Shown here: one piece after another, positions 7,724 to 39,426 of the stretch
Position numbering within the stretch: the stretch's first letter is position 1
Layout of the letters: the number at the start of each line of letters is the position of its first letter
Assembly (NCBI GenBank): GCA_034722245.1
Contig: JAYENT010000026.1
Location: 461 to 64,460, forward strand
Length of the DNA: 64,000 nucleotides
From: Chloroflexota bacterium
GTDB lineage: Bacteria > Chloroflexota > Anaerolineae > UBA1429
Reading direction: 5' to 3'
Position numbers and translations under genes: made by a program
Notes under the pieces: generated by a model
Database searches by the model: none
What the model was told of the DNA's origin: nothing
Seen by the model: the letters and a program-made list of their open reading frames with translations, nothing else

Positions 7724-7724
7724 G

Positions 7725-16415: not shown

Positions 16416-16535
16416 GGTTACAATTTCCTCTCTCTGGACTCTTGAGAAGCATATCAGAAACGCGTGTATCGTCAAGACGCCTTTGGTGTTGGAATAGTGT
16501 GGTATGGAATACACTGGATTTGCTGTATCGCCTCT

Positions 16536-21609: not shown

Positions 21610-23622
21610 GTGCGGGAGGTGGAGTGTGACAAAGCGGTGAGTAAGCAACAGAAGCGTGCTAATCTTTGGTTGCTGGGCCTTTCCCTTGTATTGGCTGTGA
21701 CAGGGCAATACTATTTGGCCAATAAGCGCCAGTTCATGTGGGATGGGATCTTACTTTACGCTCTGGCCATGGTCCTCTTTGCTTGGGTCAGCGCGCGTAT
21801 CGAGAGCGGTGGACGTGAAAAAGGCCAAAAAGGCTTTCCCGGCCTGTGGCGGGGTATCTGGCGAGCGCTGAATCACAGTGTGCTTCGTTTGGCTTTGTTC
21901 CTCTCTGGCATTGCTTTAGTTATGTTTGTGAGCTTTGCCGCTAGCTCTCGTTCCGGAAGCAGGCCCTTTTACGACCTTCTCGCCTTGTGGGGCGTGGGTA
22001 TTCTTACGACTGGTGGAGCCTGTATCCCCTGGCAGGATATGACATTCCACCCCCAAGAATGGTGGAAACGCACAGTCGAGCAAGGTCCCGAGGCGTTGTT
22101 GATCCTAGTTCTTGCCTTGGCCACGTTTCTCACGCGAGTCGTTAATCTTGAGAATATCCCTTTTGTGCTAGATGGGGACGAGGCCGCCATGGGATTGGAG
22201 GCCGTGGCTGTCATTGAGGGAAGAAGGGTTAATCCCTTTGTGACCGGCTGGCTTTCCCATCCCACGCTTTACTTCTTTTTACAATCCCTCTTTTTGCGGC
22301 TCTTTGGCATTTCCATTGCCGCCCTGCGTTTTTCCTCTGCCTTTATTTCACCTTTTATCGTCATCCTCCTTTACTTTTTCACTCGACGCTTGTATGGACG
22401 GTGGGTGGCCATCTTGAGTGCCACGTTTTTTGCCGCCTATCACTATCCCCTGCACTTTGGGCGCATTGCCCTGAACAATATCTGGGACCCCTTTTTCGCT
22501 CTGGGGGCCATCTATTTTTTGACGGTGGGGCTAGAGGAACGGCAGTTGGCTTCAGTGTTGGTCGGCGGTGTGCTGACAGGGATGGCTATCTACTTTTACA
22601 TGGGCTCGCGATTGCTGCCCATCATATTGGTGCTCTATCTCCTTTACTGGGCGTTGACGGAGACGAACTTTTTGTGGGAAAATGCGGTCTACCTCTTCCT
22701 CTTTGGGCTGATGGCTTTTCTAGTGGCGCTCCCCCTGCTAAACTTTTTTCGCACCCATCCAGAAGATTTGGTGGCTCGTTGGGAATGGGTGGGGGTTTTT
22801 TCCTCGGATTGGGCAAAAGGGGAAATGCAGAAGACGGGCAAGACAGTTTGGGGGCTTATGCCAAATCAGTTGCTCAAGTCAGTGCTAGCCTTCAACTATT
22901 TCTCCGATCCCACCTTTTTCTATCATCCCAATACTCCTCTTTTGCACTTTGGTAGTTCGATCTTTTTTGTCGTGGGCTTGACCTATTCCCTCAGGCGGTG
23001 GCGGGAGAGGAGGTACTTTTTACTGCTGCTGTGGTTCTTTTTAGTTATCCTCTTTGGAGGTGTACTGCTCGAGAACCCTCCATCGAGCGCACGGTTTGTA
23101 CTTTCCATTCCTCCTGTTGTGCTTTTTGTGGTTTTTGGGGTATTCAAGGTTTCGTCGTATATTCAGAATAGTGTTAAGGCCCTTCCCAAGGTCGCTATGA
23201 TCTTGTCCCTGGTACTGATTCTGTTCTTGAGTTATCATAGTCTGTACTTTTACTTCTGCGATTACTCGCCCCAGCATCTGTATTCCTCGTATGGCAATAC
23301 TGAAGTTGCAACTGCAATTGCCCAGTATTTGAACTTGTTGGATGCAGACTATCGCTGGTATTTTTTTGGCCCCCCTCGGATCTACCATGATTTCCCTGTG
23401 ATCTCTTTTTTAGCACCCGAGGCGAAGGGAATGGATGTGGAGGAGTCTGTTTCCGGCAGAGTAGATTTTGTGGATCCCGTCTACGACGCGGTGTTCGTAT
23501 TCTTGCCTGAACGCCGGTCAGAGTTTGAGACGGTTCGTCGCCGCTATCCAGCTGGCGCTTTTCGCGAATTCACTAATGGAGAAGGGCGACTTCTGTTCGT
23601 TTCCTACGAGGTCGATCTGTGA
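21610..23622 (+). CDS. GT-C fold glycosyltransferase, ArnT/PMT (GT39/GT83)-like
   Basis: First periplasmic loop with DGDEA acidic motif, then RRLYGRWVAILSATFFAAYHYPLHFGRIALNNIWDPFFALGAIYFL typical of PMT_2 proteins; long hydrophobic protein with a C-terminal soluble region. Confidence 0.6.
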   Translation: MREVECDKAVSKQQKRANLWLLGLSLVLAVTGQYYLANKRQFMWDGILLYALAMVLFAWVSARIESGGREKGQKGFPGLWRGIWRALNHSVLRLALFLSGIALVMFVSFAASSRSGSRPFYDLLALWGVGILTTGGACIPWQDMTFHPQEWWKRTVEQGPEALLILVLALATFLTRVVNLENIPFVLDGDEAAMGLEAVAVIEGRRVNPFVTGWLSHPTLYFFLQSLFLRLFGISIAALRFSSAFISPFIVILLYFFTRRLYGRWVAILSATFFAAYHYPLHFGRIALNNIWDPFFALGAIYFLTVGLEERQLASVLVGGVLTGMAIYFYMGSRLLPIILVLYLLYWALTETNFLWENAVYLFLFGLMAFLVALPLLNFFRTHPEDLVARWEWVGVFSSDWAKGEMQKTGKTVWGLMPNQLLKSVLAFNYFSDPTFFYHPNTPLLHFGSSIFFVVGLTYSLRRWRERRYFLLLLWFFLVILFGGVLLENPPSSARFVLSIPPVVLFVVFGVFKVSSYIQNSVKALPKVAMILSLVLILFLSYHSLYFYFCDYSPQHLYSSYGNTEVATAIAQYLNLLDADYRWYFFGPPRIYHDFPVISFLAPEAKGMDVEESVSGRVDFVDPVYDAVFVFLPERRSEFETVRRRYPAGAFREFTNGEGRLLFVSYEVDL

Positions 23623-23911: not shown

Positions 23912-26900
23912 ATGGCTCCTATGACAGGAGAGGATAAGTTCGTGACGTGGCAAGATGCGTCGCACGCTGTAAAGACAGTGTGGTCTCGACTTGGCAACCT
24001 GTCCTCCGACCGCCGTATGATGCTCAACTTGATGATAGTGATTCTTTTGATTGCAGGCGCGTTGCGTTTTACGGGGATAGATTGGGACGAGAATCAGCAC
24101 CTTCATCCCGACGAGCGCTTCTTGACCATGGTCGAGGACAGATTGCGATGGCCCAGTTCCTTCAAAGAGTATCTGGACTCCTCTGTGAACCCCCTCAGCC
24201 CCTACAATCAGGGTCACGACTACTATACCTATGGTTTGCTCCCCGTGGTTGTGACCAAGTTCATTGGTGAGATCGTGGGCGAGACGGGTTATGATAGCAT
24301 CTATCTCGTGGGGCGGGCGCTGAACGGCGTGCTTGACCTGTTTTCCATCGTGTTGATCTTTATCATGGGCAAGCGTCTCTATGACGCCCGTGTAGGGCTT
24401 TTGGGGGCCTTGTTTCTCGCTTTCAGCGTGCTTAACATTCAGAGCGCTCACTATTTCACCGTAGATACGTGGGTCACCTTTTTTGTAACCTTGGCCCTTT
24501 TCTATGCAATTCGCGTGGCCCAGGGGGAGGGATGGGGGAGTGTTCTAGCCATGGCTGTGGCTTTCGGCCTGGCCACGGCTTCCAAGATCAGCGTTCTCCC
24601 CTTTTTGCTTGTCATGGGTTTGGCCTACACGTTGAGGATCTGGAGACGATGGCAGGCTCACAGAGGTGGGGACTCCTCGCGTTTGATCCATCTGAGAAAG
24701 CAGTGGGGACGGTTTAATATCTTGCTTCGAGTTGAACCGGATGACGAGTGTGAGCCGGTGACGGATGGCGAGCGCCTGTTTTTCGAAATCCTTCGGGGGA
24801 CGCTTTCTTTCTTGGTGGCATTGGTCGTAGCCGCCCTTGTCTTCCGCGTGGCGCAACCTCACGCCTTCACGGGGCCCGGGCTGTTCAATTTCAAGCTCAA
24901 TCCCACATGGAAAGACGACATGAGTCATATCAGCAAGCTGACGAGCGGAGAGATCACTTGGCCCCCTAGTTACCAATGGACGGGCCGGACGCCGGTCCTT
25001 TTCATGCTCAAGAATATGGTATTTTGGGGATTGGGGTTGCCGTTGGGCATCGCGGCATGGGTCAGCTGGGCGTTTATAGGCTGGGAGATGTACAAGAAGG
25101 AGAAGCTGACCCATCTCCTCCCTTGGATGTGGATGACCTTTATCTTCCTCTATCACAGCACCCAGCACGTCAAGACCATGCGTTACCTGCTTCCCATCTA
25201 TCCCACGGCGGCCATGGTGGCCGCCTATGGTCTGATCAAGCTGTGGGATGGGGCCAGGGCATGGAGGGTGCATTATGGTCCGGAGAGGCGTCGGATACGC
25301 TGGGCGGTCGGCGTCCTGATTCTCGTCGTGGTGCTGGGTACGGCCTTTTGGGCCGTCGCCTTTACCAGCATCTATACGCGGCCGGTGACCCGCGTGGCGG
25401 CCTCGCGCTGGATGTACCGCAATCTTCCCCGGGGCGCCTCGGTATCCTATGAGGTGTGGGATGATCCTTTGCCTCTGAATATAGACGGACGTCTGGCGAG
25501 TTCCTACTTTGATCAGGTAAAAATGGATCTCTATGCGGAGGATACACCTGAAAAGCGGGAAAAGCTCTACGACTGGATAGAGAGAGCGGACTATATCGTT
25601 CTTTCGAGCAACCGCCTTTATAAGTCGATTCCTCGTCTTCCCATGCGCTATCCCATGACCACGCGGTACTATGAGGCCCTTTTCTCTGGGGAGCTTGGTT
25701 TTGAGCGTACAGCCACCTTTACCTCACGGCCAAAGCTGTTCGGAATTGAGATCGTCGACGACAATGCGGAGGAGGCCTTTACCGTATACGATCATCCCAA
25801 GGTGATCATCTTTAGGAAGCGCGCCGACTTTTCCATGGTCAGGGTGCGAAGGCTCTTTGAGGAGTATTCCCTTGATCGCATTGTGCGCATGAAACCCACG
25901 CAGGTGACGTCTGCGCCTAATGCTTTGATGCTCAGCGAAGAGGAATGGGCCGTACAACGCGCTGGCGGGACCTGGTCGACGATCTTTTCCCGGAACAGCC
26001 TGTCGAACAAGTTCCCGACGGTAACATGGCTTTTGGCCCTCTTTTATGTGGGATTTGCCGCCTTCCCCTTGGCCTTTGTGGCTTTTTGGCGCATGCGCGA
26101 TCGAGGGTATCTGCTCTCCAAAACCGTGGGCTTGTTAGTTATGAGCTACCTTGCCTGGCTCTTGCCCAGTTTGAAGGTGCTGCCTTATAGCCGAGGGCTC
26201 ATCGCTGGCGTGCTGTTGGGAGTGAGCGCCCTCTCTGCTGTGGTGGGATGGGTGCAAAGGCGCCCTCTACTGGACTTTGTGCGGCGACGCTGGCGTCTCC
26301 TCATAGTCGGTGAACTGCTGTTTCTGGCCTTCTTTTTCCTTTTCTGGCTTATACGCTTTCTCAACCCCGATCTCTGGCATCCGGTCATGGGCGGAGAGAA
26401 GCCCATGGATATGGCCTATCTCAACGCCATCATCAAGAGTACCCACTTTCCACCCTATGATCCCTGGTTCGCCGGCGGCTATATCAACTACTACTACTTT
26501 GGCTGGGTCGTGGCGGCCACGCTGATCAAGCTGACGGCCATCGTCCCCTCGGTGGCCTACAACCTGGCTATTCCCACGTTCTTTGCTCTCATGGCCATGG
26601 GCTCTACGTCCGTTGTCTTTAACCTGATACCCGCCGGAGAGGACGAGGATGGCTGGTTTCCCAGGGCGTTGGGTTATGGGCTCGTGGGCGCTTTGTTGGT
26701 GGCTGTGGCGGGCAACCTGGGCGAATTGCAACTCCTGTGGAATGGCTTCAAGGAACTGGGCAGTAGGGTTTCCTTTGAGAGCACCATTCCCGGGCTTGTG
26801 ACTCTGGTGCAGGTGGTTCGTGGGCTCTGGGCTTGGGTCGCGCAAGGCGAAAGGTTGCCCTTTCGCAGCGAGTGGTGGTATTGGAACGCCAGTCGCATCA

Positions 26901-29900
26901 TGAAGCACGGGGAGATCAACGAATTTCCTTTCTTTAGCTTTTTGTACGCCGACCTGCACGCCCATCTGACGGCCATGCCCTTTGCCATTTGCGCCTTGGC
27001 CCTGGCCAGCAACTTTGTCGTTGAGCCCGTGCGGTGCCTGTTCGGCCCGGCTGACGATGAGGAAGAAGGGGATAAGAGCGAGGGGACGCACGCCGAGGAT
27101 GTAGAGGGAATCCCTGTAGAAACGCGCGCACCTTTCTTGCCGGGCGTGGTACGCTCTGTGCTGCACTTCTTGCAGGGCCTGTCGTCGTGCATCCACTGGC
27201 CTATGATCGCTTCCCTGACCCTGCTCGCGCTGATCCTTGGGGAACTGTGGTGCAACAACTCTTGGGATTTCCCCACCTATGCTGGCGTGTCCGTGGTGGC
27301 CTTGGCCATAGGTTCGTATGCTGAGGCTGACAGGATCAACAAGAAGGTGGTGGCGCACTTCGCTCTTCGCGTCGCCTGCGTGCTGGCACTGAGCATGCTT
27401 TTCTTCCTGCCCTACCACGCCAACTATGGCCTGGCCTATTCCAGCGTGGATCTGTGGAAGGGGGAGCGTACGTCCATCGGCTCTTATCTTATCATTCATG
27501 GGACATTTCTTTTTATACTCGCCTCGTATCTTTTGGTGCTCCTTTTCGACAGGAGGCGCCGGAATGGAATCGTGCGTGCAATACGGCTGTTTCTTCAAGC
27601 CTGGGAGCGGCGAAGGCGTGCGCTGCATCTTTACGACCTCCTCGTGCGTTGCCCAAAGCTGGGCTACGAGCTGGGATGGCTGGGATTGGTTGTCTTGGGG
27701 ATCGTACTGCTTATATTCTTCCTAAAGCAGGCGTGGATCCTGTTGCTGGCGGCGCCTATACTCGCCTTGGCCCTGAGTGTCGTCCTCTTTACCCGAGTGC
27801 GGGCGGAGCGGCGTTTCCAGGCTGCCCTTGTGGGGATCGGACTGCTGTTGACCTTGGCTGTGGAGTATATCGTGCTAAAGGGCGACATTGGCCGTATGAA
27901 CACTGTGTTCAAGTTCTCCTTACAGGTCTGGATCATGTGGGGGGTGGTGGGGGGCGCAGCGTTGGCTTATCTGATCCCCCGCCATTGGGCCTGGCCGTCG
28001 CGCGTGCGTTCCGTATGGCGCAAAATGCTCATCTTTCTTCTCATTGGCGTTTCCCTCTATCCTCTGTGTGGTACCTATGGAAAGGTGAGAGATCGCTGGA
28101 ACCCCGATCTGCCACCGGGATTGGACGGCATGCGCTTTATGACGGGGGCACACTACCGGGATAATAATCGCGATTTGGCTCTGGAATATGATTATCGTGC
28201 CATCCGATGGATGCAGGAGCATATCAAGGGTTCGCCCGTCATCGCCGAGGCCAACACCCCCCTTTACCGCTGGGGGAGCCGCGTGTCCGTCTATACGGGG
28301 CTGCCGACCATCGTGGGTTGGGACTGGCATCAGAAGCAGCAGCGCGCTGCGGTCGGTAGTCAGGTGGTGGACTGGCGACTGGAGGATTTGCGGCTGCTCT
28401 ACAATACGCCCGATCCCGTGATGGCCGCTAACATTCTTGAGTGCTACCAGGTGGGCTACATCTATGTAGGCGAATTGGAGAAGGCCTATTACGACACGCA
28501 AGGTCTGGCCAAGTTCGGACGCATGGTTGGGTCCACGTTGGAGGTCGCTTATAGGCAGGGACCGGTGACCATCTATCGCGTCAAGGGATCGGGCGCTGGA
28601 TTGGTATCCTCAGATCCTGGAGGAGAAAGTCTCTGGAACACCGCGAAACGCTGGTTTGCCAAGCGCTGGTTGCCGGGTGTGGTGAGGGCCGAGGAGCCCC
28701 AGAAGCGTCCTCTTGGCGGGCTGCAGGCGATGGTGGGAGAGCCCTCGCTGATGTTGGACAAACCCGTTGATCAGTTGCCGGTGGTCGATGATCGAGGCTG
28801 GAATGGTCTGGCTGCGAACAGGACGATCTTTGCCCTGTTCTCGTGGTGGGTCGTGTTGCAGCTCCTTGGTTTGATCGCTCTCCCCCTGGTGGGGTATGCC
28901 TTTTCCCCTCTGCCGGACGGGGGGTATTATCTGAGCAAAGGGATCGGGCTGTTGCTCGTCAGCTATCTTGTGTGGCTTGGAACCAGCCTGCACGTGGTTG
29001 CCAACCGCCCTCATGTGGCCTGGGCCGCTTTGCTGTCGGCGGGAGGATGCTCTTTTTTTCTGTGGTGGCGCCACCGCCGTCGTCTGCGCAGGGCGTGGCG
29101 CCGACAACGGAGATTGATTCTGGTGGAGGAGGGCCTATTTAGCATCGCTTTTCTGCTCTTCGTCGGCCTGCGTCTCCTCAATCCGGATCTTTGGCAGCCC
29201 TGGTTCGGCGGGGAAAAGATGATGGAGATAGCTTTCCTAAACGCCATCTGTAAATCCGCCCACATGCCGCCGTATGATCCCTATTTCGCTGACGGGTACA
29301 TCAACTACTACTATTATGGGCAATTCATCGTCGCCACGTTGATCAAGCTCACGGGGGTGTTTCCTCGGGTGGCTTTCAATCTGGCCGTGCCCACCTTCTT
29401 TGGGCTGACCGTCTCCCATGTCTTTGGCGTCTCCTATGGTCTCGTAGCTTTGGGTGAGGAAGGGGTGGAAGAGACTGGAAGAGCAGAAGACGACGCTGGA
29501 ACTGCTGGCATTGCTCCTCGTGCCAGTCCCATCTCCTCCAGGGGGCTGTGGGCAGGGATAGGGGCAGTGGTGCTGGTGGCCGTCATGGGCAACCTCTCTG
29601 GCATACTCCAGGTGCTGGAGTGGCTTGCGAGGGCGGGCGGGGCCTCCTTTCCGGAGGGTCACGTCGCCTGGGCGGATATCCCGTACATTATTCCGGGGCT
29701 GGTGCACACGATACGTCAGGGGATCCCATTGCATTTCGAATACTGGTACTATGGCACGCGCATCATCCCCCACACCATCAACGAGTTTCCCTTTTTTACC
29801 TTTCTCTTTGCCGATCTGCATCCTCATCTGATGGGCATTCCCTTCACTATACTTGTCGTGGGGCTGGCTGCCTCTTTGCTGTGGAGCAAAAGGCGTCCTT

Positions 29901-31360
29901 TAGGGCGCTCTGTCGTGGGCGGGATTCTGACCATCATCGCTCTGGGCGCTCTGGGAGTGATCAATACGTGGGATCTGCCCGCCTATGCGGCGCTTCTGGG
30001 GTGTGTATTGCTCTATTGTGGCTATATATACGGAGGATGGCGAGGAGCGTTGGCCGGCGGGGGCGCTTTCTCGGTCCTTTTTTTGCTTTCTTTGATCGCC
30101 TACGGGCCCTTCTACACCCACTATCGGGCCCAGTATGTGGGCTTGGGGATCGTCTCTCCGGGTGAGCGCACGCGCCTGGGGCCGTTTATGCTTATTTGGG
30201 GCTTTTACGTTTTTTTAACCATCTCTATGGCCTTTTTTTGGACGGGGCGGGCCTGGCCGTGGTCCCGTCTTGCCGCCTTGGTGCAAAGGCATGGACTGGC
30301 CCGCGTCATGCATCACCTTTGGACTTTACGAAGGGCAGGGACCGTGGCCTGGAGCATCTATTCTCTGTCGGTTGCGGCGTTGATGGCCGTGGGCATCTTT
30401 CTTGTCCTATCCGAGGTATGGCTATGGGCACTGCTTGTTCCCCTCGCAGGGTTAACGGGGCTGGCCGTCCTCTGCAGTGGGATGGATCGAGCCGCCTTTT
30501 TTCGGCGCCTGATGGCACTTGGGGCTTTTTGCATCCTCTGGTTGGTGGAAGTCTTTTACATGAAGGATTTCCTGGCCAGCTCCGAGTGGCGACGTATGAA
30601 TACCATCTTCAAGTTCTACATCCAGGCCTGGGTGTTGCTCGGTTTGGCTGTGGGCGGCACTTTGCCCATACTATGGGATAGGCTGAGGGGACACCTGGGC
30701 GCTGTGTGGAAGGGCGCCTTTCTCTTGGGGCTGTTCGCGTCTCTAGTGTACACGGCGTTGGCGATTCCCGCGCGGGTGACGCAGCGGTTTCTCGACGCCC
30801 AGCCGCCGACGGGCACCCTCGATGGCACGTCCTACATGAAGACGGCGGTCTACTCCTGGCCGGATGAGGAAGACGAGATCCACCTCAAGTACGACCGTCA
30901 GGCCATCGCCTGGCTCTGGGAGAATGTGCGGGGTACGCCAGTGCTCGCCGAGGCGCCGCTGGGATATTATCGAGAAGGGGGGCTGCGAGTCTGTTCCTAC
31001 ACCGGCTTGCCAATGATCATCGGCGCCCATGAGAATGAGCAGCGCCCCTGGGAGCAGTTGGGCTCGCGCCAGGAAGATGCGGAGGCCATTTTTCGAAGCA
31101 CGGATGTCGAGAGGGTGCAGGATCTCCTGGACAAGTATCGCGTGCGCTACATTTACGTGGGGCAACTGGAGCGCAACGCCTATGATGCGGCGGGGTTGGC
31201 CAAATTCGATGTCCTGGTAGATCAAGGGGCCATCACGCGCGTGTTCCACAACGCGGGAGTCGATATTTACAGAGTCGTGGAGGACAGGCTGTCTAAGAGA
31301 ACCGGGGCCCCATATTCGGAGATAGTTGTAAGGAGTTTTGGTCTGTGCTGCAGGTCCTGA
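23912..31360 (+). CDS. Giant (2482 aa) integral membrane protein: N-terminal GT-C-like module plus two tandem Chlor_Arch_YYY (DUF2298/TIGR03662) modules
   Basis: Single uninterrupted ORF; N-terminus HLHPDERFLTMVED...YEVWDDPLPLNIDGRL paralogous to the 18506 gene; two copies of PDLW(H/Q)P(V/W)(M/F)GGEK(P/M)M(D/E)(M/I)A(Y/F)LNAI(I/C)KS(T/A)H(F/M)PPYDP(W/Y)FA(G/D)GYINYYY(F/Y)G with YYYxG motif; each followed by conserved periplasmic tail GLP(T/M)I(V/I)G...YIYVG(E/Q)LE. Confidence 0.75.
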   Translation: MAPMTGEDKFVTWQDASHAVKTVWSRLGNLSSDRRMMLNLMIVILLIAGALRFTGIDWDENQHLHPDERFLTMVEDRLRWPSSFKEYLDSSVNPLSPYNQGHDYYTYGLLPVVVTKFIGEIVGETGYDSIYLVGRALNGVLDLFSIVLIFIMGKRLYDARVGLLGALFLAFSVLNIQSAHYFTVDTWVTFFVTLALFYAIRVAQGEGWGSVLAMAVAFGLATASKISVLPFLLVMGLAYTLRIWRRWQAHRGGDSSRLIHLRKQWGRFNILLRVEPDDECEPVTDGERLFFEILRGTLSFLVALVVAALVFRVAQPHAFTGPGLFNFKLNPTWKDDMSHISKLTSGEITWPPSYQWTGRTPVLFMLKNMVFWGLGLPLGIAAWVSWAFIGWEMYKKEKLTHLLPWMWMTFIFLYHSTQHVKTMRYLLPIYPTAAMVAAYGLIKLWDGARAWRVHYGPERRRIRWAVGVLILVVVLGTAFWAVAFTSIYTRPVTRVAASRWMYRNLPRGASVSYEVWDDPLPLNIDGRLASSYFDQVKMDLYAEDTPEKREKLYDWIERADYIVLSSNRLYKSIPRLPMRYPMTTRYYEALFSGELGFERTATFTSRPKLFGIEIVDDNAEEAFTVYDHPKVIIFRKRADFSMVRVRRLFEEYSLDRIVRMKPTQVTSAPNALMLSEEEWAVQRAGGTWSTIFSRNSLSNKFPTVTWLLALFYVGFAAFPLAFVAFWRMRDRGYLLSKTVGLLVMSYLAWLLPSLKVLPYSRGLIAGVLLGVSALSAVVGWVQRRPLLDFVRRRWRLLIVGELLFLAFFFLFWLIRFLNPDLWHPVMGGEKPMDMAYLNAIIKSTHFPPYDPWFAGGYINYYYFGWVVAATLIKLTAIVPSVAYNLAIPTFFALMAMGSTSVVFNLIPAGEDEDGWFPRALGYGLVGALLVAVAGNLGELQLLWNGFKELGSRVSFESTIPGLVTLVQVVRGLWAWVAQGERLPFRSEWWYWNASRIMKHGEINEFPFFSFLYADLHAHLTAMPFAICALALASNFVVEPVRCLFGPADDEEEGDKSEGTHAEDVEGIPVETRAPFLPGVVRSVLHFLQGLSSCIHWPMIASLTLLALILGELWCNNSWDFPTYAGVSVVALAIGSYAEADRINKKVVAHFALRVACVLALSMLFFLPYHANYGLAYSSVDLWKGERTSIGSYLIIHGTFLFILASYLLVLLFDRRRRNGIVRAIRLFLQAWERRRRALHLYDLLVRCPKLGYELGWLGLVVLGIVLLIFFLKQAWILLLAAPILALALSVVLFTRVRAERRFQAALVGIGLLLTLAVEYIVLKGDIGRMNTVFKFSLQVWIMWGVVGGAALAYLIPRHWAWPSRVRSVWRKMLIFLLIGVSLYPLCGTYGKVRDRWNPDLPPGLDGMRFMTGAHYRDNNRDLALEYDYRAIRWMQEHIKGSPVIAEANTPLYRWGSRVSVYTGLPTIVGWDWHQKQQRAAVGSQVVDWRLEDLRLLYNTPDPVMAANILECYQVGYIYVGELEKAYYDTQGLAKFGRMVGSTLEVAYRQGPVTIYRVKGSGAGLVSSDPGGESLWNTAKRWFAKRWLPGVVRAEEPQKRPLGGLQAMVGEPSLMLDKPVDQLPVVDDRGWNGLAANRTIFALFSWWVVLQLLGLIALPLVGYAFSPLPDGGYYLSKGIGLLLVSYLVWLGTSLHVVANRPHVAWAALLSAGGCSFFLWWRHRRRLRRAWRRQRRLILVEEGLFSIAFLLFVGLRLLNPDLWQPWFGGEKMMEIAFLNAICKSAHMPPYDPYFADGYINYYYYGQFIVATLIKLTGVFPRVAFNLAVPTFFGLTVSHVFGVSYGLVALGEEGVEETGRAEDDAGTAGIAPRASPISSRGLWAGIGAVVLVAVMGNLSGILQVLEWLARAGGASFPEGHVAWADIPYIIPGLVHTIRQGIPLHFEYWYYGTRIIPHTINEFPFFTFLFADLHPHLMGIPFTILVVGLAASLLWSKRRPLGRSVVGGILTIIALGALGVINTWDLPAYAALLGCVLLYCGYIYGGWRGALAGGGAFSVLFLLSLIAYGPFYTHYRAQYVGLGIVSPGERTRLGPFMLIWGFYVFLTISMAFFWTGRAWPWSRLAALVQRHGLARVMHHLWTLRRAGTVAWSIYSLSVAALMAVGIFLVLSEVWLWALLVPLAGLTGLAVLCSGMDRAAFFRRLMALGAFCILWLVEVFYMKDFLASSEWRRMNTIFKFYIQAWVLLGLAVGGTLPILWDRLRGHLGAVWKGAFLLGLFASLVYTALAIPARVTQRFLDAQPPTGTLDGTSYMKTAVYSWPDEEDEIHLKYDRQAIAWLWENVRGTPVLAEAPLGYYREGGLRVCSYTGLPMIIGAHENEQRPWEQLGSRQEDAEAIFRSTDVERVQDLLDKYRVRYIYVGQLERNAYDAAGLAKFDVLVDQGAITRVFHNAGVDIYRVVEDRLSKRTGAPYSEIVVRSFGLCCRS

Positions 31361-33747
31361 TCTGGTGGCTCGTCCTTCAAGTGATAGGCTTGCTCGCTTT
31401 GCCCATCACGTTGCGACTCCTGCGCTTCCTGCCCGACCACGGATTCGGGTTCTCCCGTCAAGTGGGACTGATCCTGTCGGCGTTTGCTTTCTGGCTGTTG
31501 GTGACTTTGGGGATCCTGCAAAATACCACGTCGTGCATCGTGTTTGTGTTGCTGCTTATGGGGGGCTTTTCCGCCTATCTGTGGTCGAAAGATGGGGAAT
31601 GGATGTTGGCCGCTCTGGGGGAGCGAAAGCGCGTTCTCCTCATCACAGAATGTGTCTTTATTGTGGGACTGGCCGGCTTTGCTTTGTTTCGCGCCTATAA
31701 CCCTGACATTGCAGGCACGGAAAAGCCCATGGAGTTCGCTTTCATAAATGGCATTCTGCGCAGCCGCACCTTTCCCCCGAACGACCCCTGGCTGTCAGGC
31801 TATGCCATCAGTTATTATTACTTTGGTTACGTCATGACGGCCATGCTGACCAAGCTCTCGGGAGTGCCCAGCGAGATCGCCTTCAACTTTATGGGCAGTA
31901 CCCTGTTTGCCCTCACCCTGAGCGGATCCTTCAGCCTCGTGTACAACATGGCACAGGCACACCTTGATCGACAGGACGGCGGCGTAACGAAGAACACCTC
32001 TTCCGTATCGGGAACTGCCGTGGGTGCCGGTTTTTTAGGGGTAGTCCTTGTGGCACTGATGGGCAATCTGGAGGGCGTCTTTGAGCTGCTGCGCGCCCAT
32101 GGTGCGGGGTCGGAGGCTCTGTGGCAGTGGTTGGACATAAAGAATCTACACGCCACGGCGCAGAGTGCCACGTGGTATCCCGACGATACCTGGTGGTGGT
32201 GGCGCGCATCCCGCGTCATCCATGACGTGGATGCGGCCGGCCGCTCCATGGAGGTTATCGACGAGTTTCCCTTTTTCAGCTTTCTTTTGGGGGACAACCA
32301 TCCCCACGTGCTCGCGTTGCCCTTTGTGTTGCTGGCGCTGGCGTTGGCCCTCAACCTCGTGCTGAATGGGTCGCGACAGGGTAAGGCACGATCCGATGCG
32401 GAGGAGGAGAGGGGCCTCTGGGAACGAGTTGTCGCCTTCTTTTTAAATCTCTGGCCCGGCGACACCCTGGAGTTCGTGCTCTATTCTATGATCGTAGGGG
32501 GCCTGGGCTTCCTCAATACCTGGGACTATCCGATCTATCTGGGGATTCTGGTTCTGGTCTATGCCATGCGCCATCAGGCAGAAGTGGAATTTGGCCAACA
32601 GTGGCTGTTGGACGTGCTTGCCGTCTTTGGGGCGCTGCTCTTCACGGGCATCCTTTCCTATCTCCCCTTTTACATAAGCTTTCGCTCTCAGGCCGGAGGC
32701 ATCGGCTGGGTGGGGGCGATCAAGACCCGTCTTCACCAATACCTGATCATGATGGGCGTCTTTGTTTCCATACAGATCGGTTTTCTGCTCTCCCTTGTAA
32801 CCCATCGGCGGAGGAAGGGTGTGGTTGAGGGGCCGCCCTCGTTGGCGAAATGGGTTGCCGGTCTGATGGCGCTCTTTGTGCTGTTTTGTCTGTTTCAGCG
32901 GTGGTGGACGGGCGCTTTCATATGGGCTATCGTGGCCCCCGCGGCTGCCCTCTGGCTGTGGGGCAGTCGGGACGGGTGGGGCGAACCCCTTTCGCCCACT
33001 ATGTCCTTTGCGCTCCTGTTGGTCGCGGTGGGTTTCGCGCTGACCGGAAGCGTGGAGTTCATCTTTCTGCGGGATACGTTCGGTACGCGCATGAACACCA
33101 TCTTCAAATTCTATTACCAGGCTTGGGTGCTGCTCGCTGTTTCCTCTGCCTATGGCCTGTTCCACGTGCTACACCGGTGGGAGCGATTGCGCTCCATGCT
33201 GGGGCGGGTTGCCACGGGAGCATGGTTGGCCGTATCGGGGGTGCTTGTACTGGCTGGGCTGAGCTACACGGTGGCCGCCATATCCAGTAAGGCCGGCGGT
33301 TTTCGGGGCCAGCCAACGCTCGATGGCACGCGCTATGTGCGCCAGTATCGGGAAGCAGACTATGAGGCCATCCAGTGGCTAAAAGCTAATGCTCCGGCAG
33401 GGAGCGTGCTACTGGAAGCCCCAGGAGGCTCCTATTCGGAGTACAACTGGGTCTCCGCGCATACGGGGATACCCACCGTGCTGGGGTGGGGCGGACACGA
33501 ACTGCAGTGGCGAGGAAACTATGATGAGGCCGGGCGGCGAGAGCCGGATATCGCCGCTATCTACCAGAGTCTCGACAAGGCGCAGAAGCGGCAGCTACTT
33601 GAGAAATACGACGTGGATTTCGTATACGTTGGCCCGCTGGAGAGAGAAAAGTACGGCCTGAACCTGGCCATGATCGGTGCTTTTGACGGTTTCATGCAGC
33701 GCTGTTACGAGGGGAAGGGCGTCATCATCTACTGCTGGTCGCCCTGA
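31345..33747 (+). CDS. Chlor_Arch_YYY (DUF2298) membrane protein, single-module form
   Basis: GTG start with AAGGAG SD, overlaps giant-gene stop by 16 nt; PDIAGTEKPMEFAFINGILRSRTFPPNDPWLSGYAISYYYFG; C-terminal tail GIPTVLGWGGHELQWRG...VDFVYVGPLEREKYG is homologous to the two tails in the giant protein. Confidence 0.7.
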   Translation: MLQVLIWWLVLQVIGLLALPITLRLLRFLPDHGFGFSRQVGLILSAFAFWLLVTLGILQNTTSCIVFVLLLMGGFSAYLWSKDGEWMLAALGERKRVLLITECVFIVGLAGFALFRAYNPDIAGTEKPMEFAFINGILRSRTFPPNDPWLSGYAISYYYFGYVMTAMLTKLSGVPSEIAFNFMGSTLFALTLSGSFSLVYNMAQAHLDRQDGGVTKNTSSVSGTAVGAGFLGVVLVALMGNLEGVFELLRAHGAGSEALWQWLDIKNLHATAQSATWYPDDTWWWWRASRVIHDVDAAGRSMEVIDEFPFFSFLLGDNHPHVLALPFVLLALALALNLVLNGSRQGKARSDAEEERGLWERVVAFFLNLWPGDTLEFVLYSMIVGGLGFLNTWDYPIYLGILVLVYAMRHQAEVEFGQQWLLDVLAVFGALLFTGILSYLPFYISFRSQAGGIGWVGAIKTRLHQYLIMMGVFVSIQIGFLLSLVTHRRRKGVVEGPPSLAKWVAGLMALFVLFCLFQRWWTGAFIWAIVAPAAALWLWGSRDGWGEPLSPTMSFALLLVAVGFALTGSVEFIFLRDTFGTRMNTIFKFYYQAWVLLAVSSAYGLFHVLHRWERLRSMLGRVATGAWLAVSGVLVLAGLSYTVAAISSKAGGFRGQPTLDGTRYVRQYREADYEAIQWLKANAPAGSVLLEAPGGSYSEYNWVSAHTGIPTVLGWGGHELQWRGNYDEAGRREPDIAAIYQSLDKAQKRQLLEKYDVDFVYVGPLEREKYGLNLAMIGAFDGFMQRCYEGKGVIIYCWSP

Positions 33748-33842: not shown

Positions 33843-35657
33843 GTGAATGAGCCGCTCATGGCCGTCAATTCCACCGGGTTACGCTCATGGTCTCCTTCCT
33901 CTTTTGAGGAGGTGGCTTCTGGTATAGCAAGGGGTATCACGGAGCATGGCGTGGTGCCCCGGTCGCTGACCGTCGAGGTCGCGCTGTACGGGCTCATCAC
34001 CTTTGCCGCCTTGATAGTACGGTTGGCGGCGCTGGGGCGCTGGCCCCTTTTGGAGAACGAGGCGCACACAGCGCTGGCAGCATGGCGCGCTCTGCAAGGG
34101 GCGCCGCCCGTGCGTGCTTTTGACTATGTCCCGCTGCTTTACGATGCGAACCTGCTGCTCTTTGCCCTATCACAGGCCTCAGACGCGGCCGTGCGTCTGC
34201 TGCCCGCTTTCATGGGGGCTGCCCTTGTACTGCTTCCTTATTTCTGCCGGGATGTGTTGGGGCGTCAGGGAAGCCTGCTGGCTTCTCTGTTGCTCGCCTT
34301 CGCGCCTACGTGGGTCTTTTTCTCACGCACGGCAGAGGGGGCCATCCTCATCGCCACCTTGAGTGGGGTCATATTGCTCTCGGTCAGTCGCTATCTACAG
34401 GAGGGCCATGCAGGCCGTTTGCAGTTGGCTTTTGTCGCCCTGGGATTGGGACTGACCGCCGGGCCGGGGATGTACACCTTCTTGCTCTATGCTTTCCTGT
34501 ACGGCGGCGTGTGGTGGCTTACTCAGCGTGATGATGTCCCCCGCAACCGCCTGCGGAGATTGCTCGAAGGGGCTTTCACTAGACGCAATGTCCTGAGTCT
34601 TGTAGGAACATTCCTCCTTTTCGGCAGCGCCTTCCTGACCAACCCTGGTGGCATTGGGGCTAGTGTCAATCTGGGCGGTCAGTGGGTACGTGCGCTGTCC
34701 TCCGAGGCGGATTTGTCGTCCCTCGCCCTCGTGAAGACGTTGCTGACGTACGAGTTCTTGACCATGGCCCTTGCCCTTGTGGGTCTCGTGTGGGGGCTGC
34801 GGCAAAAGGACACTGTCACCCTTTTTCTGGCTTTGTGGATTTTTTGGGGACTGTTGCTGAGCATCCCCTTGGGGCACCGTGAACCACGCTGGCTACCCAA
34901 TTTACTGTTGCCACTGGTCATCCTGGCGGCGAGGGGGTTTCAGTATCTTTGGGATCACGTGCTCGCTGGCGCAGGTTGGGACGAGGGGATAGCATTTTGG
35001 GTGATGGTTGCTTTGACGGCCTTTGGTTTCCTGGAACTCTTTGCTTTTACACATACGGCGCAAGAGAGGTATCTCTTCTACGCTGCCGGAGGCTGCTTGA
35101 TGCTGTTGGCTATGTGGGTCGCGTGCTGGTTTTGGCTTGGTCGCCGTGGGGCCTTGGCCGTCGGCGCGGGACTCCTGCTGTTGTCCATGGGTATCATGAC
35201 TATCAGGGCTTCTACGGCGGTAGCTTACCAGACTGGACGCGATGCGAGGGAGGGATTGGTTTATCGTCCCGCGTCCATGCAACTGCGTTTACTGGAGCGC
35301 TTTTTGCTTGACCTCTCCAGTCGCCGAACGGGAGGGCTGCATGCTCTGGACATCGACTACGAGGAAGCGTTGGATCCCTGGATGAGTTGGTATCTGCGCG
35401 ATTATCCCAACGCGCGTTCCGTGCCACTTGCCGATTCCCAGACGGCGACGAGCGCCCTCATCACCAGTGAGCGCTCAGAAAAACAGTGGCCCGCGGGCTA
35501 TGCGGGACAGCGCTTCTATCTTTGGGAGCATCACCCGGCGCAGGACCTTTCGGGGCGGCAGTGGCTGCGGTGGTTTTTCTATCGCGATGCTGTGGGGACC
35601 ATAGAGGCCAGACAAGTTCAAGTGTGGATACGTCTTGGTGGAGATGGTGAGCAATAG
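33843..35657 (+). CDS. Polytopic membrane protein, TIGR03663-like (GT-C-related family co-occurring with YYY proteins)
   Basis: About 12 TM segments (LTAGPGMYTFLLYAFLYGGVWWL etc.) with a C-terminal soluble segment; N-terminal region similar in organisation to the N-terminal part of the 35679 protein. Confidence 0.5.
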   Translation: MNEPLMAVNSTGLRSWSPSSFEEVASGIARGITEHGVVPRSLTVEVALYGLITFAALIVRLAALGRWPLLENEAHTALAAWRALQGAPPVRAFDYVPLLYDANLLLFALSQASDAAVRLLPAFMGAALVLLPYFCRDVLGRQGSLLASLLLAFAPTWVFFSRTAEGAILIATLSGVILLSVSRYLQEGHAGRLQLAFVALGLGLTAGPGMYTFLLYAFLYGGVWWLTQRDDVPRNRLRRLLEGAFTRRNVLSLVGTFLLFGSAFLTNPGGIGASVNLGGQWVRALSSEADLSSLALVKTLLTYEFLTMALALVGLVWGLRQKDTVTLFLALWIFWGLLLSIPLGHREPRWLPNLLLPLVILAARGFQYLWDHVLAGAGWDEGIAFWVMVALTAFGFLELFAFTHTAQERYLFYAAGGCLMLLAMWVACWFWLGRRGALAVGAGLLLLSMGIMTIRASTAVAYQTGRDAREGLVYRPASMQLRLLERFLLDLSSRRTGGLHALDIDYEEALDPWMSWYLRDYPNARSVPLADSQTATSALITSERSEKQWPAGYAGQRFYLWEHHPAQDLSGRQWLRWFFYRDAVGTIEARQVQVWIRLGGDGEQ

Positions 35658-35678: not shown

Positions 35679-38600
35679 ATGAGCGAGAAAAAAGAGATCG
35701 CTTTTCTGGACAGGCCCATTATAGGAGACAGGATCGCGTGGTGGAAGGTGATATATGCCCTTCTCATACTTTTTGTCGTGTTTACCCGTTTGTGGGCCCT
35801 GGCCCCCCGTGGTTACAGCCACGATGAGAGCATTCATGCCTGGGAATCCTGGAAGCTGATTACAGGACAGGGATACAGTCATGATCCCACCTATCATGGC
35901 CCCTTTCTCTATCATTTCACGGCTTTTATTTTCGGCCTATTTGGGCACAATGACTATACGGCGCGCCTGAGTCCTGCGCTCTTTGGCATTGCGCTGGCCG
36001 TTCTGCCACTCCTGCTGAAAAAGTGGTTGGGCAAAAAGGGCGTCCCGGCAGCGACTTTTTTGATAGCCATCTCGCCCGTGATGATGCATCGCTCCCGTTT
36101 TCTGCGCCATGACGTATACGTCGCCGTCTTCAATTTGTTGCTGTTCATCAGCTCGCTTCGCTATCTGGATCAACGCAAGACCAAGGACCTTTATTTGGTG
36201 GCCGCGGCGACCTCTTTGGGTTTCTGCGCCAAGGAGACCACCTTTATCACCTATTTCATCTTTGGCACTTTTTGGGCCCTTCTTTTTCTTTCCCAATGGC
36301 TGCGCGAGCGCACGCGCCCCTGGCGCGAACTGCCCGTTTTCGACCTGATTATCGTCATGGGCACCCTCATTTTGCCTTTGGCCTCTCCTTTTCTCATCAG
36401 GGTGCTGGGAGGCGACCCGCTGGACTATACACAGCAGGGCATCCTTTTCTCTGGAGCCATATTCCTGGTGGTCTTGGGCATCTCTGCGGCCATCGGCTTC
36501 TGGTGGGACTGGCGCCGCTGGCTGGTGTGTGCGGGGATATTCTATGGCATCTTTGTGCCACTATTCACTACGATGTTTACTAACGGGCGGGGCTTTGCCA
36601 CGGGGACGGTGGGCCAGTTGGGATATTGGCTCTCCCAGCAGGGCGTGAGACGTGGCGATCAACCGCCCTACTACTACTTGGTACTGATGCCCATGTACGA
36701 GTTTCTTCCCCTGCTCGGGGCTATCGGCGGGGGTATATACTTTTTCTCTAAAAGGTCTCAGGACGAGGAAGCGGTAGAGGATGCTCCCACGGGAATTCCC
36801 TTCGTACCCATGCTCCTCTATTGGAGCGTGTTGGCCTTTGTGATCTATAGCTGGGCCGGGGAAAAGATGCCGTGGTTGACCATGCACCTGGCCCTCCCTC
36901 TCCAGCTCTTGGCCGGCTGGGCTATCGGTCGCCTGTTTGATGCGGATTGGGGCGAACTGCGTGAGAAAGGCGCGCTGTGGCTTCTTTTGCTTATTCCCCT
37001 TTTCATCTATGTGATACTACGACTTCTTAATCTCAATCCCTCGGCGGGCACGACAAGACAGGAGTTAAGCGAGACCATGGCCTGGTTGACCTCCCTGCTC
37101 GTCGGTCTGGGGCTCGTGGTTGCCATCTCGCGGATTCTTTACAGACTGAGTGGGGGGCAGCGATGGCGGATCGGTTTGGTGTCCCTTTTCATCATTCTCA
37201 GTATGCTGACGGTGCGCTTCGCTTGGATGGCATCCTTTGTCAACGCCGATCTGCCTACCGAGTTTCTGGTCTATGCTCAGGGCACGCCCGACGTGGCGCT
37301 GGTGGCGAAGGAGATCGAAGAGATGTCGCGCCGGCTGACCGGGGGCTTGCACATGAAGGTGGCCTACGATGATGACTCCAGTTGGCCCTTTGTCTGGTAT
37401 CTGCGCAAGTTCGACAATGCCCAGTTTTATGGTCAAGAGCCGGCAGGCCCTTTTGATGCCGAGGTAGTTCTCGTCGGGCCGCCTAACGAATCAGCGGTCA
37501 AGCCCCTGTTGGGCAACGATTACTATCGGCGGCAGTATCGGCTCATATGGTGGCCCAACCAGGATTGGTACATGAGTCCGGAATTGAAGAGCATTCGGCA
37601 GGGGATGAAGGAGAAGAGGATTGCGGGCAAGCTGTCGGATCTCTTATTATATTTGAAGACGATGCTGAAAAAGATTTGGCGGGTGGTCAGAGACAAGTCG
37701 GCGCGTCAGAATCTCTGGGATGTCTTCTTTTATCGCGAATACGAAGCCTCTTTGACCTCCTGGCCCCACGTGCACAAGTTCGCCTTGTACGTGCGGCGAG
37801 ACGTGGCGCAGCAGTTGTGGGACTATGGGCCCGAGGTGCTCACGGCGGCGGAGCCTCTGCCCGGGGACGAATACGTGGAGAAATGGGAGCAGATCATGGC
37901 GACCGACGCCTTTGGTTCGTCGGGCAGTGGGCCGGGGCAATTGAATAGGCCAAAGGGCATTGGCGTGGACGAGGACGGGAATGTCTATGTGGCGGATACC
38001 CACAATCATCGTATTCAAGTATTCGACGGGGATGGCCAATTCTTGCGCCAGTGGGGGGCGGAAGGCAATCAGTCTGGTCAGTTCAAGGAGCCGTGGGGTG
38101 TGACGGTGGGCCCCGAGGGGGACATCTACATCGCCGACACATGGAATCATCGCATACAGGTGTTTGATGTTCGGGGACAGCTCAAGCGAGTCTGGGGAAC
38201 CTTTGGTGAGGTAAAAGATCCCATGGGCTCTGGCGATCTTTTGTATGGTCCTCGTGATCTCGTCGTCGATGCAGAGGGGAATCTCTACGTCACCGATACG
38301 GGAAACAAGCGCGTGATCAAGTATGATGCCGAGGGCAATATGATCAAGGCCGTCGGAGGCGCCGGGAGTGAAGAGGGGCAGATGCAGGAGCCGGTGGGAC
38401 TTGCCTTGTCCCCGGAAGGCGATCTGTACGTGGCCGATACCTGGAATCAGCGCATTCAGGTCTTTGATAAAGACTTGGATTTCCTGCGCAGTTGGCCAGT
38501 ATACGCCTGGGAGGGCATGTCGGTGCTCAACAAGCCCTACTTGGCAGTGGATGCTGAGGGTAATGTCTATGCCACTGATCCGGAGGGCTATCGCGTGCTC

Positions 38601-38759: not shown

Positions 38760-38772
38760 CGGGGAAGAAGCC

Positions 38773-39426
38773 ATGATGCTGAACGTCGACGTGTTTCTCT
38801 TCGATTTCGATGGCACCCTGATCGAGCCCACTATCGATTTTGATTTGATGCACCGGAAGGTGCTCAAGATAGTGCGCGATTTTGGTGTGGCAGATCGTTC
38901 GCTGAGGCAGTTGCATACCCTGGAGACCGTAGAGACGGTCGAGGCGCGGTTGCGGGACGACCATGGTGCGCGCGAAGAATTTCTGAAACGGGTACATGCT
39001 TCTATCCTCGATCTGGAACTGGAGGCAGCGGAACATGCCCATGCCTATCCGGGCGTCCCCGAGATGCTGGACGAACTGGCCACCAGGGGATTTGGGGTAG
39101 GCATCGTGACGCGCAACTCTCGTGCTGCCGTGATGCGCATCCTGCGGCGATTCCCGCTCCACTATGACGTGCTCCTCACCCGGGATGACGTGGCCCATGT
39201 CAAGCCGGACCCTCGTCACCTATTGAGGGCTTTGGAACACTTTTCTGAGGGGCGACGGCGCGCCGCCATGTGCGGGGACCATCCCATGGATGTGGTCGTG
39301 GGCAAGCGTATCGGCGCCCTGACAGTGGGCGTTCTACAGCCCGGCATGTCGGAGGAGCGCTTTGCAGGAGTGGACCCCGATCTCGTGGTCTCGCACCCGC
39401 CAGAGTTGTTGGAGTATGTGGGTTGA
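38773..39426 (+). CDS. HAD-superfamily hydrolase (phosphatase)
   Basis: DVFLFDFDGTLIEP motif I (DxDG); GVGIVTRNSR...; K...GDHPMDVVVGKRIG motifs III/IV; ATG 38773 is 14 nt after the upstream stop. Confidence 0.75.
   Translation: MMLNVDVFLFDFDGTLIEPTIDFDLMHRKVLKIVRDFGVADRSLRQLHTLETVETVEARLRDDHGAREEFLKRVHASILDLELEAAEHAHAYPGVPEMLDELATRGFGVGIVTRNSRAAVMRILRRFPLHYDVLLTRDDVAHVKPDPRHLLRALEHFSEGRRRAAMCGDHPMDVVVGKRIGALTVGVLQPGMSEERFAGVDPDLVVSHPPELLEYVG

Follow-up and report, generated by a model that had tools for sequence, protein, structure and literature searches.

The window analysed here, a stretch of 64,000 nucleotides from an uncultured Chloroflexota bacterium, contains two overlapping genes for large membrane proteins built from related modules, and the question that they raise is how these modules came to be distributed over two reading frames and what they could be doing together.

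Modules encoded by the two genes

As described in the first-pass annotation, the ORF calls comprise an ATG-initiated ORF of 2482 aa at 23912-31360 (+ strand) and a GTG-initiated ORF of 800 aa at 31345-33747 (+ strand), which share 16 nt in different frames. The giant gene encodes a PMT_2-like GT-C module (N module) followed by two YYY modules, M1 and M2, and the downstream gene (NCBI MEA3407039.1) encodes a stand-alone YYY module, M3. The giant protein is identical to NCBI MEA3407038.1, whose start is placed 3 codons later, and both proteins carry the NCBI label "DUF2298 domain-containing". Both genes are members of TIGR03662 (Chlor_Arch_YYY) and PF10060 (DUF2298), since they exceed the curated cutoffs: the Pfam PF10060 profile rendered 737 bits in two stretches for the giant protein and 382 bits for the downstream one (cutoff 27.8), and the NCBIfam TIGR03662 profile 1026 and 562 bits, respectively (cutoff 300.25). 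The YYYxG motif (INYYYFG, INYYYYG and ISYYYFG) is found in each case inside a hydrophobic module of 700-900 aa. Four membrane sugar-transferase modules are predicted over the two adjacent genes, three of them fused in the 2482-residue protein. No Rfam match was found in the window, no tandem repeat was detected by Tandem Repeats Finder, and a promoter/terminator scan of the 17-37 kb region was no better than with shuffled sequences.

In loop 1 the N module (aa 1-690; 23912-25981, + strand) carries the invariant motif W58-D59...H65-P66-D67-E68-R69, and towards its C-terminus there is an alpha/beta domain (aa ~505-650). It had been proposed to be a paralogue of the upstream gene at 18506-20380 (+ strand), a stand-alone PMT_2 GT-C gene, and this is borne out by 31% identity over 652 aa (E 2e-81). 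The FHPDER loop motif is common to both; the ORF tool places the start of the upstream gene at 18392, Met39 at 18506 being the likelier start. Pfam PF13231/PF02366 rendered no match at E <=0.01 in the N module of the window; the paralogue exceeded the cutoffs with scores of 38.5 and 27 bits, and orthologues have precomputed PF13231/PF02366 annotation. At the level of predicted models, the PMT_2 fold of the N module was confirmed.

Profile scores, BLASTP and motifs delimited M1 at aa ~700-1565 (26009-28606, + strand) and M2 at aa ~1640-2458 (28829-31285, + strand). That these two and M3 are homologous copies of one module, as had been suggested, is upheld by pairwise BLASTP, with 33% identity between M1 and M2 (E 4e-106), 32% between M2 and M3 (E 9e-96) and 30% between M1 and M3 (E 9e-78), 22 bits being the best of 20 shuffle controls. 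The motifs quoted in the annotation were all located where they had been placed, and those of M1 follow the order NPDLW, GGEKPMD, PPYDP, INYYYFG, INEFPFF..DLHAH, NSWD and RMNTVFKF, with a globular tail last. The C-terminal globular domain of M3 comprises aa ~650-800 (33292-33744, + strand), and the equivalent tails are found at ~28109-28591 in M1 and ~30809-31285 in M2. Two acidic, low-complexity runs had been taken for loops between modules; both are located within modules and are not linkers. The first, DDEEEGDKSEGTHAEDVEG (aa 1048-1066; 27053-27109, + strand), is inserted in M1 and corresponds to a low-confidence (disordered) loop at 343-355 of the M3 model, and the second, GEEGVEETGRAEDDAGTAG (aa 1848-1866; 29453-29509, + strand), is inserted in M2 and corresponds to another such loop at 212-219.

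Across 138 modules, a conservation of at least 0.9 in all three module clades is reached by 23 positions with polar or aromatic residues, including E126, D147, E307, D317, H319, H321, D394, R582 and K588. E126 and D147, positioned in the loop after helix 4, are invariant in YYY modules, and Y157 and Y158 show a conservation of 1.00 in every clade. Positions 284-287, 715 and 721-722 are clade-dependent, and in 84% of the M2 clade the Trp of the C-terminal family consensus LGWxxHExQ is replaced by A or M.

Age of the arrangement and the M2/M3 boundary

The layout had been interpreted as a record of serial duplication with a fusion or fission event. In a neighbour-joining tree, M1, M2 and M3 form three clades with bootstrap values of 99 (M1), 98 (M2; 82 when Roseiflexus is included) and 100 (M3), each of which contains the positional counterpart from Roseiflexus castenholzii. 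The duplications that gave rise to the three YYY modules are therefore ancient, and the modules are old paralogues and not recent copies. A recent, lineage-specific series of tandem duplications, from which M3 would have been split off by fission, could be imagined from modules that are adjacent, co-oriented and similar in length, but it is very improbable, because the modules share only 30-33% identity and almost no DNA similarity (DNA-level matches are restricted to the two most conserved motifs, with three copies each at a spacing of 2.5-2.9 kb), and because each of them groups with its Roseiflexus counterpart and not with its neighbours.

Nor does the layout record a fusion or fission between M2 and M3, since in every one of the 61 related loci with a YYY ORF upstream, and likewise in R. 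castenholzii, M3 has an ORF to itself. No fused M3 was found among the 120 best M3 homologues, and among the 150 best matches out of 1.84 billion representatives no protein is long enough to hold an N module and three YYY modules, the longest being 2744 aa. In 15 of the 61 loci the start of M3 and the stop of the preceding gene overlap by 1 or 4 nt, and the gap to the upstream gene is 150 nt or less in 23 further ones. Fusion or fission was found at the other boundaries, N|M1 and M1|M2 (loci L006, L054 and L072). An origin of M2 by transfer from a 'GTC_a~M2' fusion was also considered; in single fusions of the M2 type, the N-terminal portion scored about equally against N and GTC_a. As part of the explanation that we favour as a whole, the order N-M1-M2 followed by a separate and often translationally coupled M3 probably predates the split between Anaerolineae and Chloroflexia. 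The arrangement in the window is ordinary for its clade, and the layout is old and common across the phylum.

The 16-nt overlap is secondary. In the three closest relatives the first gene ends in ..VVENGDV*, which is followed by a 48-nt spacer and then by ATG. In the window, 1 nt is deleted after GAGGAC, so that the ancestral TAA (31294-31296) is no longer in the frame of the first gene and now lies in that of M3. The overlap results from this shift, the giant ORF continuing through an out-of-frame tail of 24 codons, RLSKRTGAPYSEIVVRSFGLCCRS, plus a stop (31286-31360, + strand). It is possible that the deletion is real or that it is an assembly error. M3 has a Shine-Dalgarno sequence of its own, AAGGAG (31330-31335, + strand), 9 nt ahead of its GTG, which aligns with the ATG of loci L001, L002 and L045. 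It had been feared that a frameshift at 31345-31360 masks a single ORF of ~3280 aa with all three YYY modules, a suspicion to which the overlap and the nearby 1-nt indel relative to close relatives could lend some colour. Restoration of the nucleotide, however, recreates the ancestral stop and the spacer and not a fusion, and therefore excludes such an artefact; the start and ribosome-binding signals of M3 and the consistent separation of M3 in the loci and homologues surveyed likewise leave this reading with next to no probability. Joining of M2 and M3 by stop-codon readthrough was rejected: a single in-frame stop separates the two in the closest relatives, but among the adjacent pairs listed only 8 share a frame and are interrupted by one stop, a number judged to be no more than expected by chance.

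The two-copy class of TIGR03662 is described as having an extra N-terminal region, two YYY copies and 3-4 TPR repeats, and the window had been contrasted with it as having a third YYY copy rather than TPRs. R. castenholzii Rcas_0532 (WP_012119093.1, 2679 aa) has the same PMT_2-like N module and two YYY modules, which are positional orthologues of those in the window, with 35% identity to the giant protein over 97% of its length, and it has C-terminal TPR repeats, whereas the window protein has no TPR match. The contrast proves to be false, since a third, stand-alone YYY gene is found downstream in the TPR class as well, as after Rcas_0532, where the two genes are 940 nt apart instead of overlapping. 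The sole real difference is the absence of TPRs here, and the TPR-less variant is common in Anaerolineae (~50 matches), whereas matches of the Roseiflexus type have the TPRs.

Predicted fold and operon context

A literature search rendered passing mentions of DUF2298/TIGR03662 and no functional study, and literature matches to a 'YYY domain' were discarded as the unrelated Y_Y_Y domain. A search of PDB sequences with the full YYY profile rendered nothing at E <=1, and one with the profile of the C-terminal domain rendered only 3vu0 (E 0.069), amid triosephosphate-isomerase noise. Since no solved structure is related in sequence, the fold assignment rests on predicted models, in which the YYY modules present a multi-pass GT-C membrane core. 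We consider it probable that the two genes encode four GT-C-fold glycosyltransferase modules, one PMT/ArnT-like and three of the DUF2298/YYY type, which would depend on polyprenyl-phosphate sugars and act successively on one envelope glycoconjugate.

In this preferred explanation, a YYY module is predicted to consist of a divergent GT-C core and, behind it, a globular domain that resembles the C-terminal one of the oligosaccharyltransferases AglB/PglB/STT3. From the helix count in the predicted model and the positive-inside rule we infer that three extra N-terminal helices bring the module to ~16 transmembrane helices with both ends extracellular, a topology that would allow modules to be joined head to tail with no helix in the linkers; no hydrophobic segment was found in aa 484-707 and aa 1390-1639 of the giant protein. 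The conserved polar motifs (NPD/EKPM/PPxDP/YYY; R..EFPFF..D.H.H; N.WD.P; RMNT.FK) would then all lie on the outer face of the membrane, where they may form the active site that binds a lipid-phosphate sugar donor and catalyses the transfer, and the globular tails may hold the acceptor. Since core residues are alike in the three paralogues and signatures are clade-specific, they would most likely each carry out a transfer of their own, one after the other, on a single envelope glycoconjugate.

The modules could instead be oligosaccharyltransferase-like enzymes that glycosylate proteins, for instance those of an S-layer or sheath, en bloc or stepwise, and a cryptic sister group of AglB/PglB/STT3 (GT66). 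These enzymes, like the YYY modules, combine a GT-C core with a C-terminal globular domain that, according to the models, has the same (OST core) fold. The WWDYG motif of GT66 is absent from YYY modules, which have about three additional N-terminal helices and show no significant sequence relationship to those enzymes; no STT3 Pfam match was found at E <=0.01, and archaeo_STT3 alone gave a match, of 18 bits and in the N module. We regard this alternative as rather unlikely. Still less likely is that the modules are not transferases and instead transport, flip or scaffold lipid-linked sugars, as has been proposed for the neighbouring Agl23 family. Agl23 of Haloarcula hispanica (TIGR03663), a single PMT_2-like protein and not a YYY module, has been reported to have flippase activity on lipid-linked sugars (PMC11182771). 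This reading is opposed by the invariant acidic and histidine clusters in the putative extracytoplasmic loops and by the substrate-binding type of globular tail, features that are characteristic of GT-C catalysis.

Relatives of TIGR03663 are encoded directly downstream of M3, namely an Agl23-like membrane protein (33843-35657, + strand; 101 bits, under the 126-bit cutoff), found after M3 in most loci, and an Agl23-like membrane domain fused to an NHL beta-propeller (35679-38759, + strand; 289 bits; loop motif SHDES). Upstream are a flippase-like membrane protein of the LPG_synthase_TM/TIGR00374 type (20458-21471, + strand), which is also kept in a number of other loci, L081-L083 among them, and a second stand-alone PMT_2 GT-C gene with the loop motif LDGDEA (21610-23622, + strand), in most relatives the gene immediately before the fusion. 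The succession flippase-like, PMT_2, N fused to one or two YYY modules, M3, Agl23-like and Agl23-NHL recurs over 80 Chloroflexota loci and in L081-L083. As judged from this synteny, a conserved operon with further PMT_2 and Agl23-like genes most likely specifies an extracytoplasmic envelope-glycan pathway, in which the two stand-alone PMT_2 enzymes, the flippase-like protein and the two Agl23-like proteins would be the partners of the YYY modules.

A decaprenyl-phosphate phosphoribosyltransferase-like gene (UbiA-like, DPPR-synthase-like) lies 7.4 kb upstream. In L081-L083 the 10 kb upstream do not contain it, DprE1/E2 genes are missing from the window, and the HAD gene downstream is generic; a link to the operon was set aside, the gene being kept as a lead only. 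No lipid-phosphate-sugar synthase (GT2/DPM1-like) was found in the part of the operon covered by the window, which speaks against the preferred explanation.

Tandem paralogous GT-C genes are also found in the mycobacterial embC-embA-embB/Aft (arabinofuranosyltransferase) system, which builds an envelope glycan stepwise outside the cytoplasm from polyprenyl-phosphate sugar donors. The structural matches include AftA and AftB, and the decaprenyl-phosphate phosphoribosyltransferase-like gene upstream is a further resemblance. The GT-C families of the two systems are different, however, and each Emb protein is a polypeptide of its own with a CBM tail; the window has no DprE1/E2 genes, and its UbiA-like gene is unlinked in relatives. 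The protein O-mannosyltransferases Pmt1-Pmt2 and ArnT (GT39/GT83) share the PMT_2 fold and the loop-1 Asp-Glu motif with the N module and its two stand-alone neighbours. Pmt1 and Pmt2 are paralogous GT-C enzymes able to act as obligate pairs; in the window, in contrast, there is no MIR domain and the paralogues are covalently fused instead of being separate chains.

Significance for the DUF2298 family

The two proteins of the window, which are already database entries, extend a known family, DUF2298/TIGR03662, and a representative search rendered 9515 clusters at 50% identity for DUF2298. Our analysis assigns to it, on predicted models, a GT-C fold and a tail of the OST type, distinguishes three ancient classes of paralogues with one candidate active site in common, and places DUF2298 modules in a conserved seven-gene operon with eight GT-C-type modules. 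A more far-reaching reading, which we offer tentatively and hold to be possible rather than probable, is that DUF2298/YYY represents a so far unrecognised branch of the GT-C enzymes, OST-like in kind, and the operon a covalently linked, multi-enzyme extracytoplasmic assembly line, with a predicted ~45 transmembrane helices in one chain and a coupled fourth module, for a phylum-specific envelope glycoconjugate. Its product would be a glycoprotein or a lipoglycan, and its donors possibly polyprenyl-phosphate pentofuranose supplied via the DPPR-synthase-like enzyme. The envelope chemistry of Chloroflexota is poorly known, and Rcas_0532 and its downstream gene in the cultivable Roseiflexus, together with the list of conserved residues, provide concrete targets for the study of surface-glycan assembly in this phylum.

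Three homologous modules in two ORFs

The giant ORF (23912-31360, forward strand, ATG start, 2482 aa) and the downstream ORF (31345-33747, forward strand, GTG start preceded by AAGGAG 9 nt upstream, 800 aa) share 16 nt, read in different frames, the second gene starting inside the first as the first-pass annotation had described. Both products are already known in NCBI as 'DUF2298 domain-containing protein', under the consecutive entries MEA3407038.1 and MEA3407039.1 of a Chloroflexota MAG. The Pfam model PF10060 (DUF2298) matches the giant twice (737 bits) and the downstream protein once (382 bits), and the NCBIfam model TIGR03662 (Chlor_Arch_YYY; cutoff 300) scores 1026 and 562 bits, respectively. 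After cutting the giant at residues 690 and 1600, its two YYY modules, M1 and M2, and that of the downstream protein, M3, were aligned end to end, with identities of 33% for M1 and M2 (E 4e-106), 32% for M2 and M3 (E 9e-96) and 30% for M1 and M3 (E 9e-78), against at most 22 bits for shuffled controls. Thus, the description of three tandem homologous modules is correct, and the arrangement is real. At the DNA level no tandem repeats were found, and only the regions for the two best-preserved motifs, INEFPFF..D.H.H and RMNT.FKF..Q.W, can still be seen, in three copies 2.5-2.9 kb apart. The N-terminal module of the giant, N (residues 52-655), is indeed a paralogue of the product of the 18392/18506-20380 gene (31% identity, E 2e-81), with a 'HPDER' loop motif in common. 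Two acidic runs previously regarded as inter-module loops are instead located within M1 (aa 1048-1066) and within M2 (aa 1848-1866).

The overlap had raised the question of whether a frameshift at 31345-31360 hides a single ORF in which the three modules are fused. In the three closest relatives (loci L001, L002 and L045, 77-79% identical) the first gene stops at '...DIYEVVENGDV*' (TGA or TAA) and an ATG comes 48 nt later, whereas the window has 1 nt fewer after GAGGAC (31285-31296). This 1-nt deletion leaves the ancestral TAA (31294-31296) out of frame and extends the giant ORF by 24 codons into M3, giving rise to both the 24-residue tail and the 16-nt overlap; the ancestral ending 'GGQAV*' is still legible in the other frame. 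The overlap is therefore a trivial mutation of recent date or an error in the MAG assembly, and no fusion underlies it. A scan of GTDB species genomes rendered 80 related loci, every one from a Chloroflexota MAG, and M3 was an ORF of its own in all 61 with an upstream YYY-bearing ORF, which it overlapped by 1 or 4 nt in 15 cases and followed after 0-150 nt in 23, the remaining gaps being longer. The best 120 M3 homologues were likewise all stand-alone (713-887 aa). Among 1.84 billion representatives, searched exhaustively with a profile, 9515 belong to the family, and the best 150 of these, at 2744 aa or less, are too short to hold N and three YYY modules in one chain. The junction alignment and the invariably separate M3 exclude a hidden triple fusion.

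Age and distribution of the arrangement

In a neighbour-joining tree (67 modules, 711 columns, 100 bootstraps) the modules fall into three clades, with bootstrap values of 100 for M3, 99 for M1 and 98 for M2 (82 with Roseiflexus included), each holding the same-position module of the cultured Roseiflexus castenholzii. In this bacterium Rcas_0532 (2679 aa) consists of N, two YYY modules and TPRs, and a stand-alone 939-aa DUF2298 gene lies downstream, so that the [N-M1-M2][M3] layout is older than the split of Chloroflexia and Anaerolineae. The arrangement is typical of the phylum: the giant is best placed in the two-copy class of TIGR03662/DUF2298, a known but uncharacterised family, as a variant that differs from Rcas_0532 in having no TPRs, and the M3 gene is the usual stand-alone partner of such proteins.

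Other lineages carry N fused to M1, or N', a possible orthologue of the stand-alone upstream gene, fused to M2, followed by a separate M3, and the modules are separate ORFs in a few loci (L006, L054, L072). In L006 (3444-13201) N fused to M1, M2 and M3 are distinct ORFs, as are N, an M1-type module and M3 in L054 (3095-11195); these splits are either real fissions or MAG frameshifts. A separate 173-aa TPR gene directly after a single-YYY fusion gene in L012 (4246-4767) echoes the Roseiflexus TPR repeats. The earlier reading of serial duplication with fusion or fission holds only in part: the modules are homologous, but the paralogues are ancient, and the fusion state, which varies among loci, does not vary at the boundary to M3.

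Predicted fold, topology and candidate active site

An AlphaFold2 model of M3 (32-sequence alignment, pLDDT 83.9, pTM 0.89) matched ALG12 (score 14.6), STT3B (14.1), Pmt4 (13.7), ALG9 (13.3), AftA (12.9), AftB (12.7), PglB (12.3), AglB (11.9) and ArnT (11.6); N was modelled with pLDDT 87.0. The C-terminal domain of the M3 model, taken separately, resembles the C-terminal globular domains of oligosaccharyltransferases (OSTs), and an independent Foldseek search placed full-length AfAglB at the top (E 9e-7; 3vu0, probability 1.00), while no solved structure was significantly related in sequence-level searches. The OST hallmark WWDYG is not present in the YYY modules, and the family carries LGWxxH, whose Trp the M2 clade has lost. 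Taken together, these results predict GT-C-type enzymes of OST-like build that fall outside GT66.

From the last helix of one module to the first helix of the next the chain is soluble (aa 484-707 and aa 1390-1639), with no hydrophobic segment, so that the N-terminus of a YYY module should share its side of the membrane with the globular tail before it. If the tails are extracytoplasmic, as they are in all known GT-C enzymes that have domains of this kind, YYY modules would begin and end outside the cell. The M3 model has about 16 helices, three ahead of a 13-helix GT-C core, a count that would place every conserved motif outside and both disordered acidic inserts inside, and the first loops agree with the positive-inside rule. 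From helix count, linkers and this rule we infer a topology with both ends outside, which would explain the stringing together of modules. For the giant it would mean roughly 40-45 transmembrane helices, against 38 in a stringent hydropathy scan.

In a comparison of 138 modules, the three clades share 23 polar or aromatic positions that are at least 90% conserved in each (M3 numbering: R116, E126, K127, N135, D147, Y157, Y158, R290, E307, D317, H319, H321, N391, D394, R582, N584, K588, Q592, E691, H718, R723, R732 and E766). Others are clade-specific, namely 284-287 (WYWN in M1, DYWx in M2, WWWR in M3), 715 (W, A and W) and 721-722 (QQ, EQ and QW). This pattern of residues fits three functional enzymes with differing specificities rather than decayed copies.

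Genomic context and possible role

Co-directional with the giant are a PMT_2 gene (18506-20380), an LPG_synthase_TM flippase-like gene (20458-21471), a second PMT_2 gene (21610-23622) and, after M3, an Agl23-like gene (33843-35657) and one encoding an Agl23-like domain (TIGR03663, 289 bits) fused to a five-repeat NHL beta-propeller (35679-38759), the latter being the second gene after M3 in most of the related loci as well. The block also includes genes for HAD and NUDIX proteins and for a CCA-adding enzyme. The HAD-family hydrolase gene (38746-39426) shares 14 nt with the end of the Agl23-NHL gene and is kept downstream in several relatives; its matches are to generic HAD models alone (PpaX-like, 83 bits, under the cutoff). 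The same gene order is found throughout the 80 loci and three long contigs, L081, L082 and L083, in which GT4 and SAM-methyltransferase genes lie between the flippase-like and PMT_2 genes (3879-5911, 3932-5963 and 6034-8075, respectively); the window has neither, with 138 nt between 21471 and 21610. A loop-1 Asp-Glu motif is present in several of the PMT_2-type proteins, and the Haloarcula protein Agl23 has been associated with the flipping of lipid-linked sugars (PMC11182771). This context supports a model in which an envelope glycoconjugate is built from lipid-phosphate sugars on the extracytoplasmic side. No Rfam family reached its gathering score in the window (1-64000), despite ribosomal-protein and rpoA genes at 12-15 kb.

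A UbiA-family gene (15549-16514, reverse strand), 7.4 kb upstream of the giant, between L13/S9 ribosomal protein genes and a TlyA/FtsJ-like methyltransferase gene, reaches 275.9 bits with the NCBIfam decaprenyl-phosphate phosphoribosyltransferase equivalog, above its cutoff of 234. It recalls pentofuranose systems, which combine a polyprenyl-phosphoribose synthase with a flippase and a GT-C enzyme (PMC11127046), but no epimerase genes were found in the window and the linkage is absent in L081-L083. The gene may, as a lead only, supply a polyprenyl-P-pentofuranose donor.

What the analysis adds is the predicted assignment to a GT-C fold with an OST-type tail, the division of the paralogues into three ancient classes that all retain the same intact candidate active site, the inferred topological logic of concatenation and the conserved operon. 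Should the modules prove to be a new OST-like enzyme class building a Chloroflexota-specific envelope polymer, the arrangement would gain in importance.
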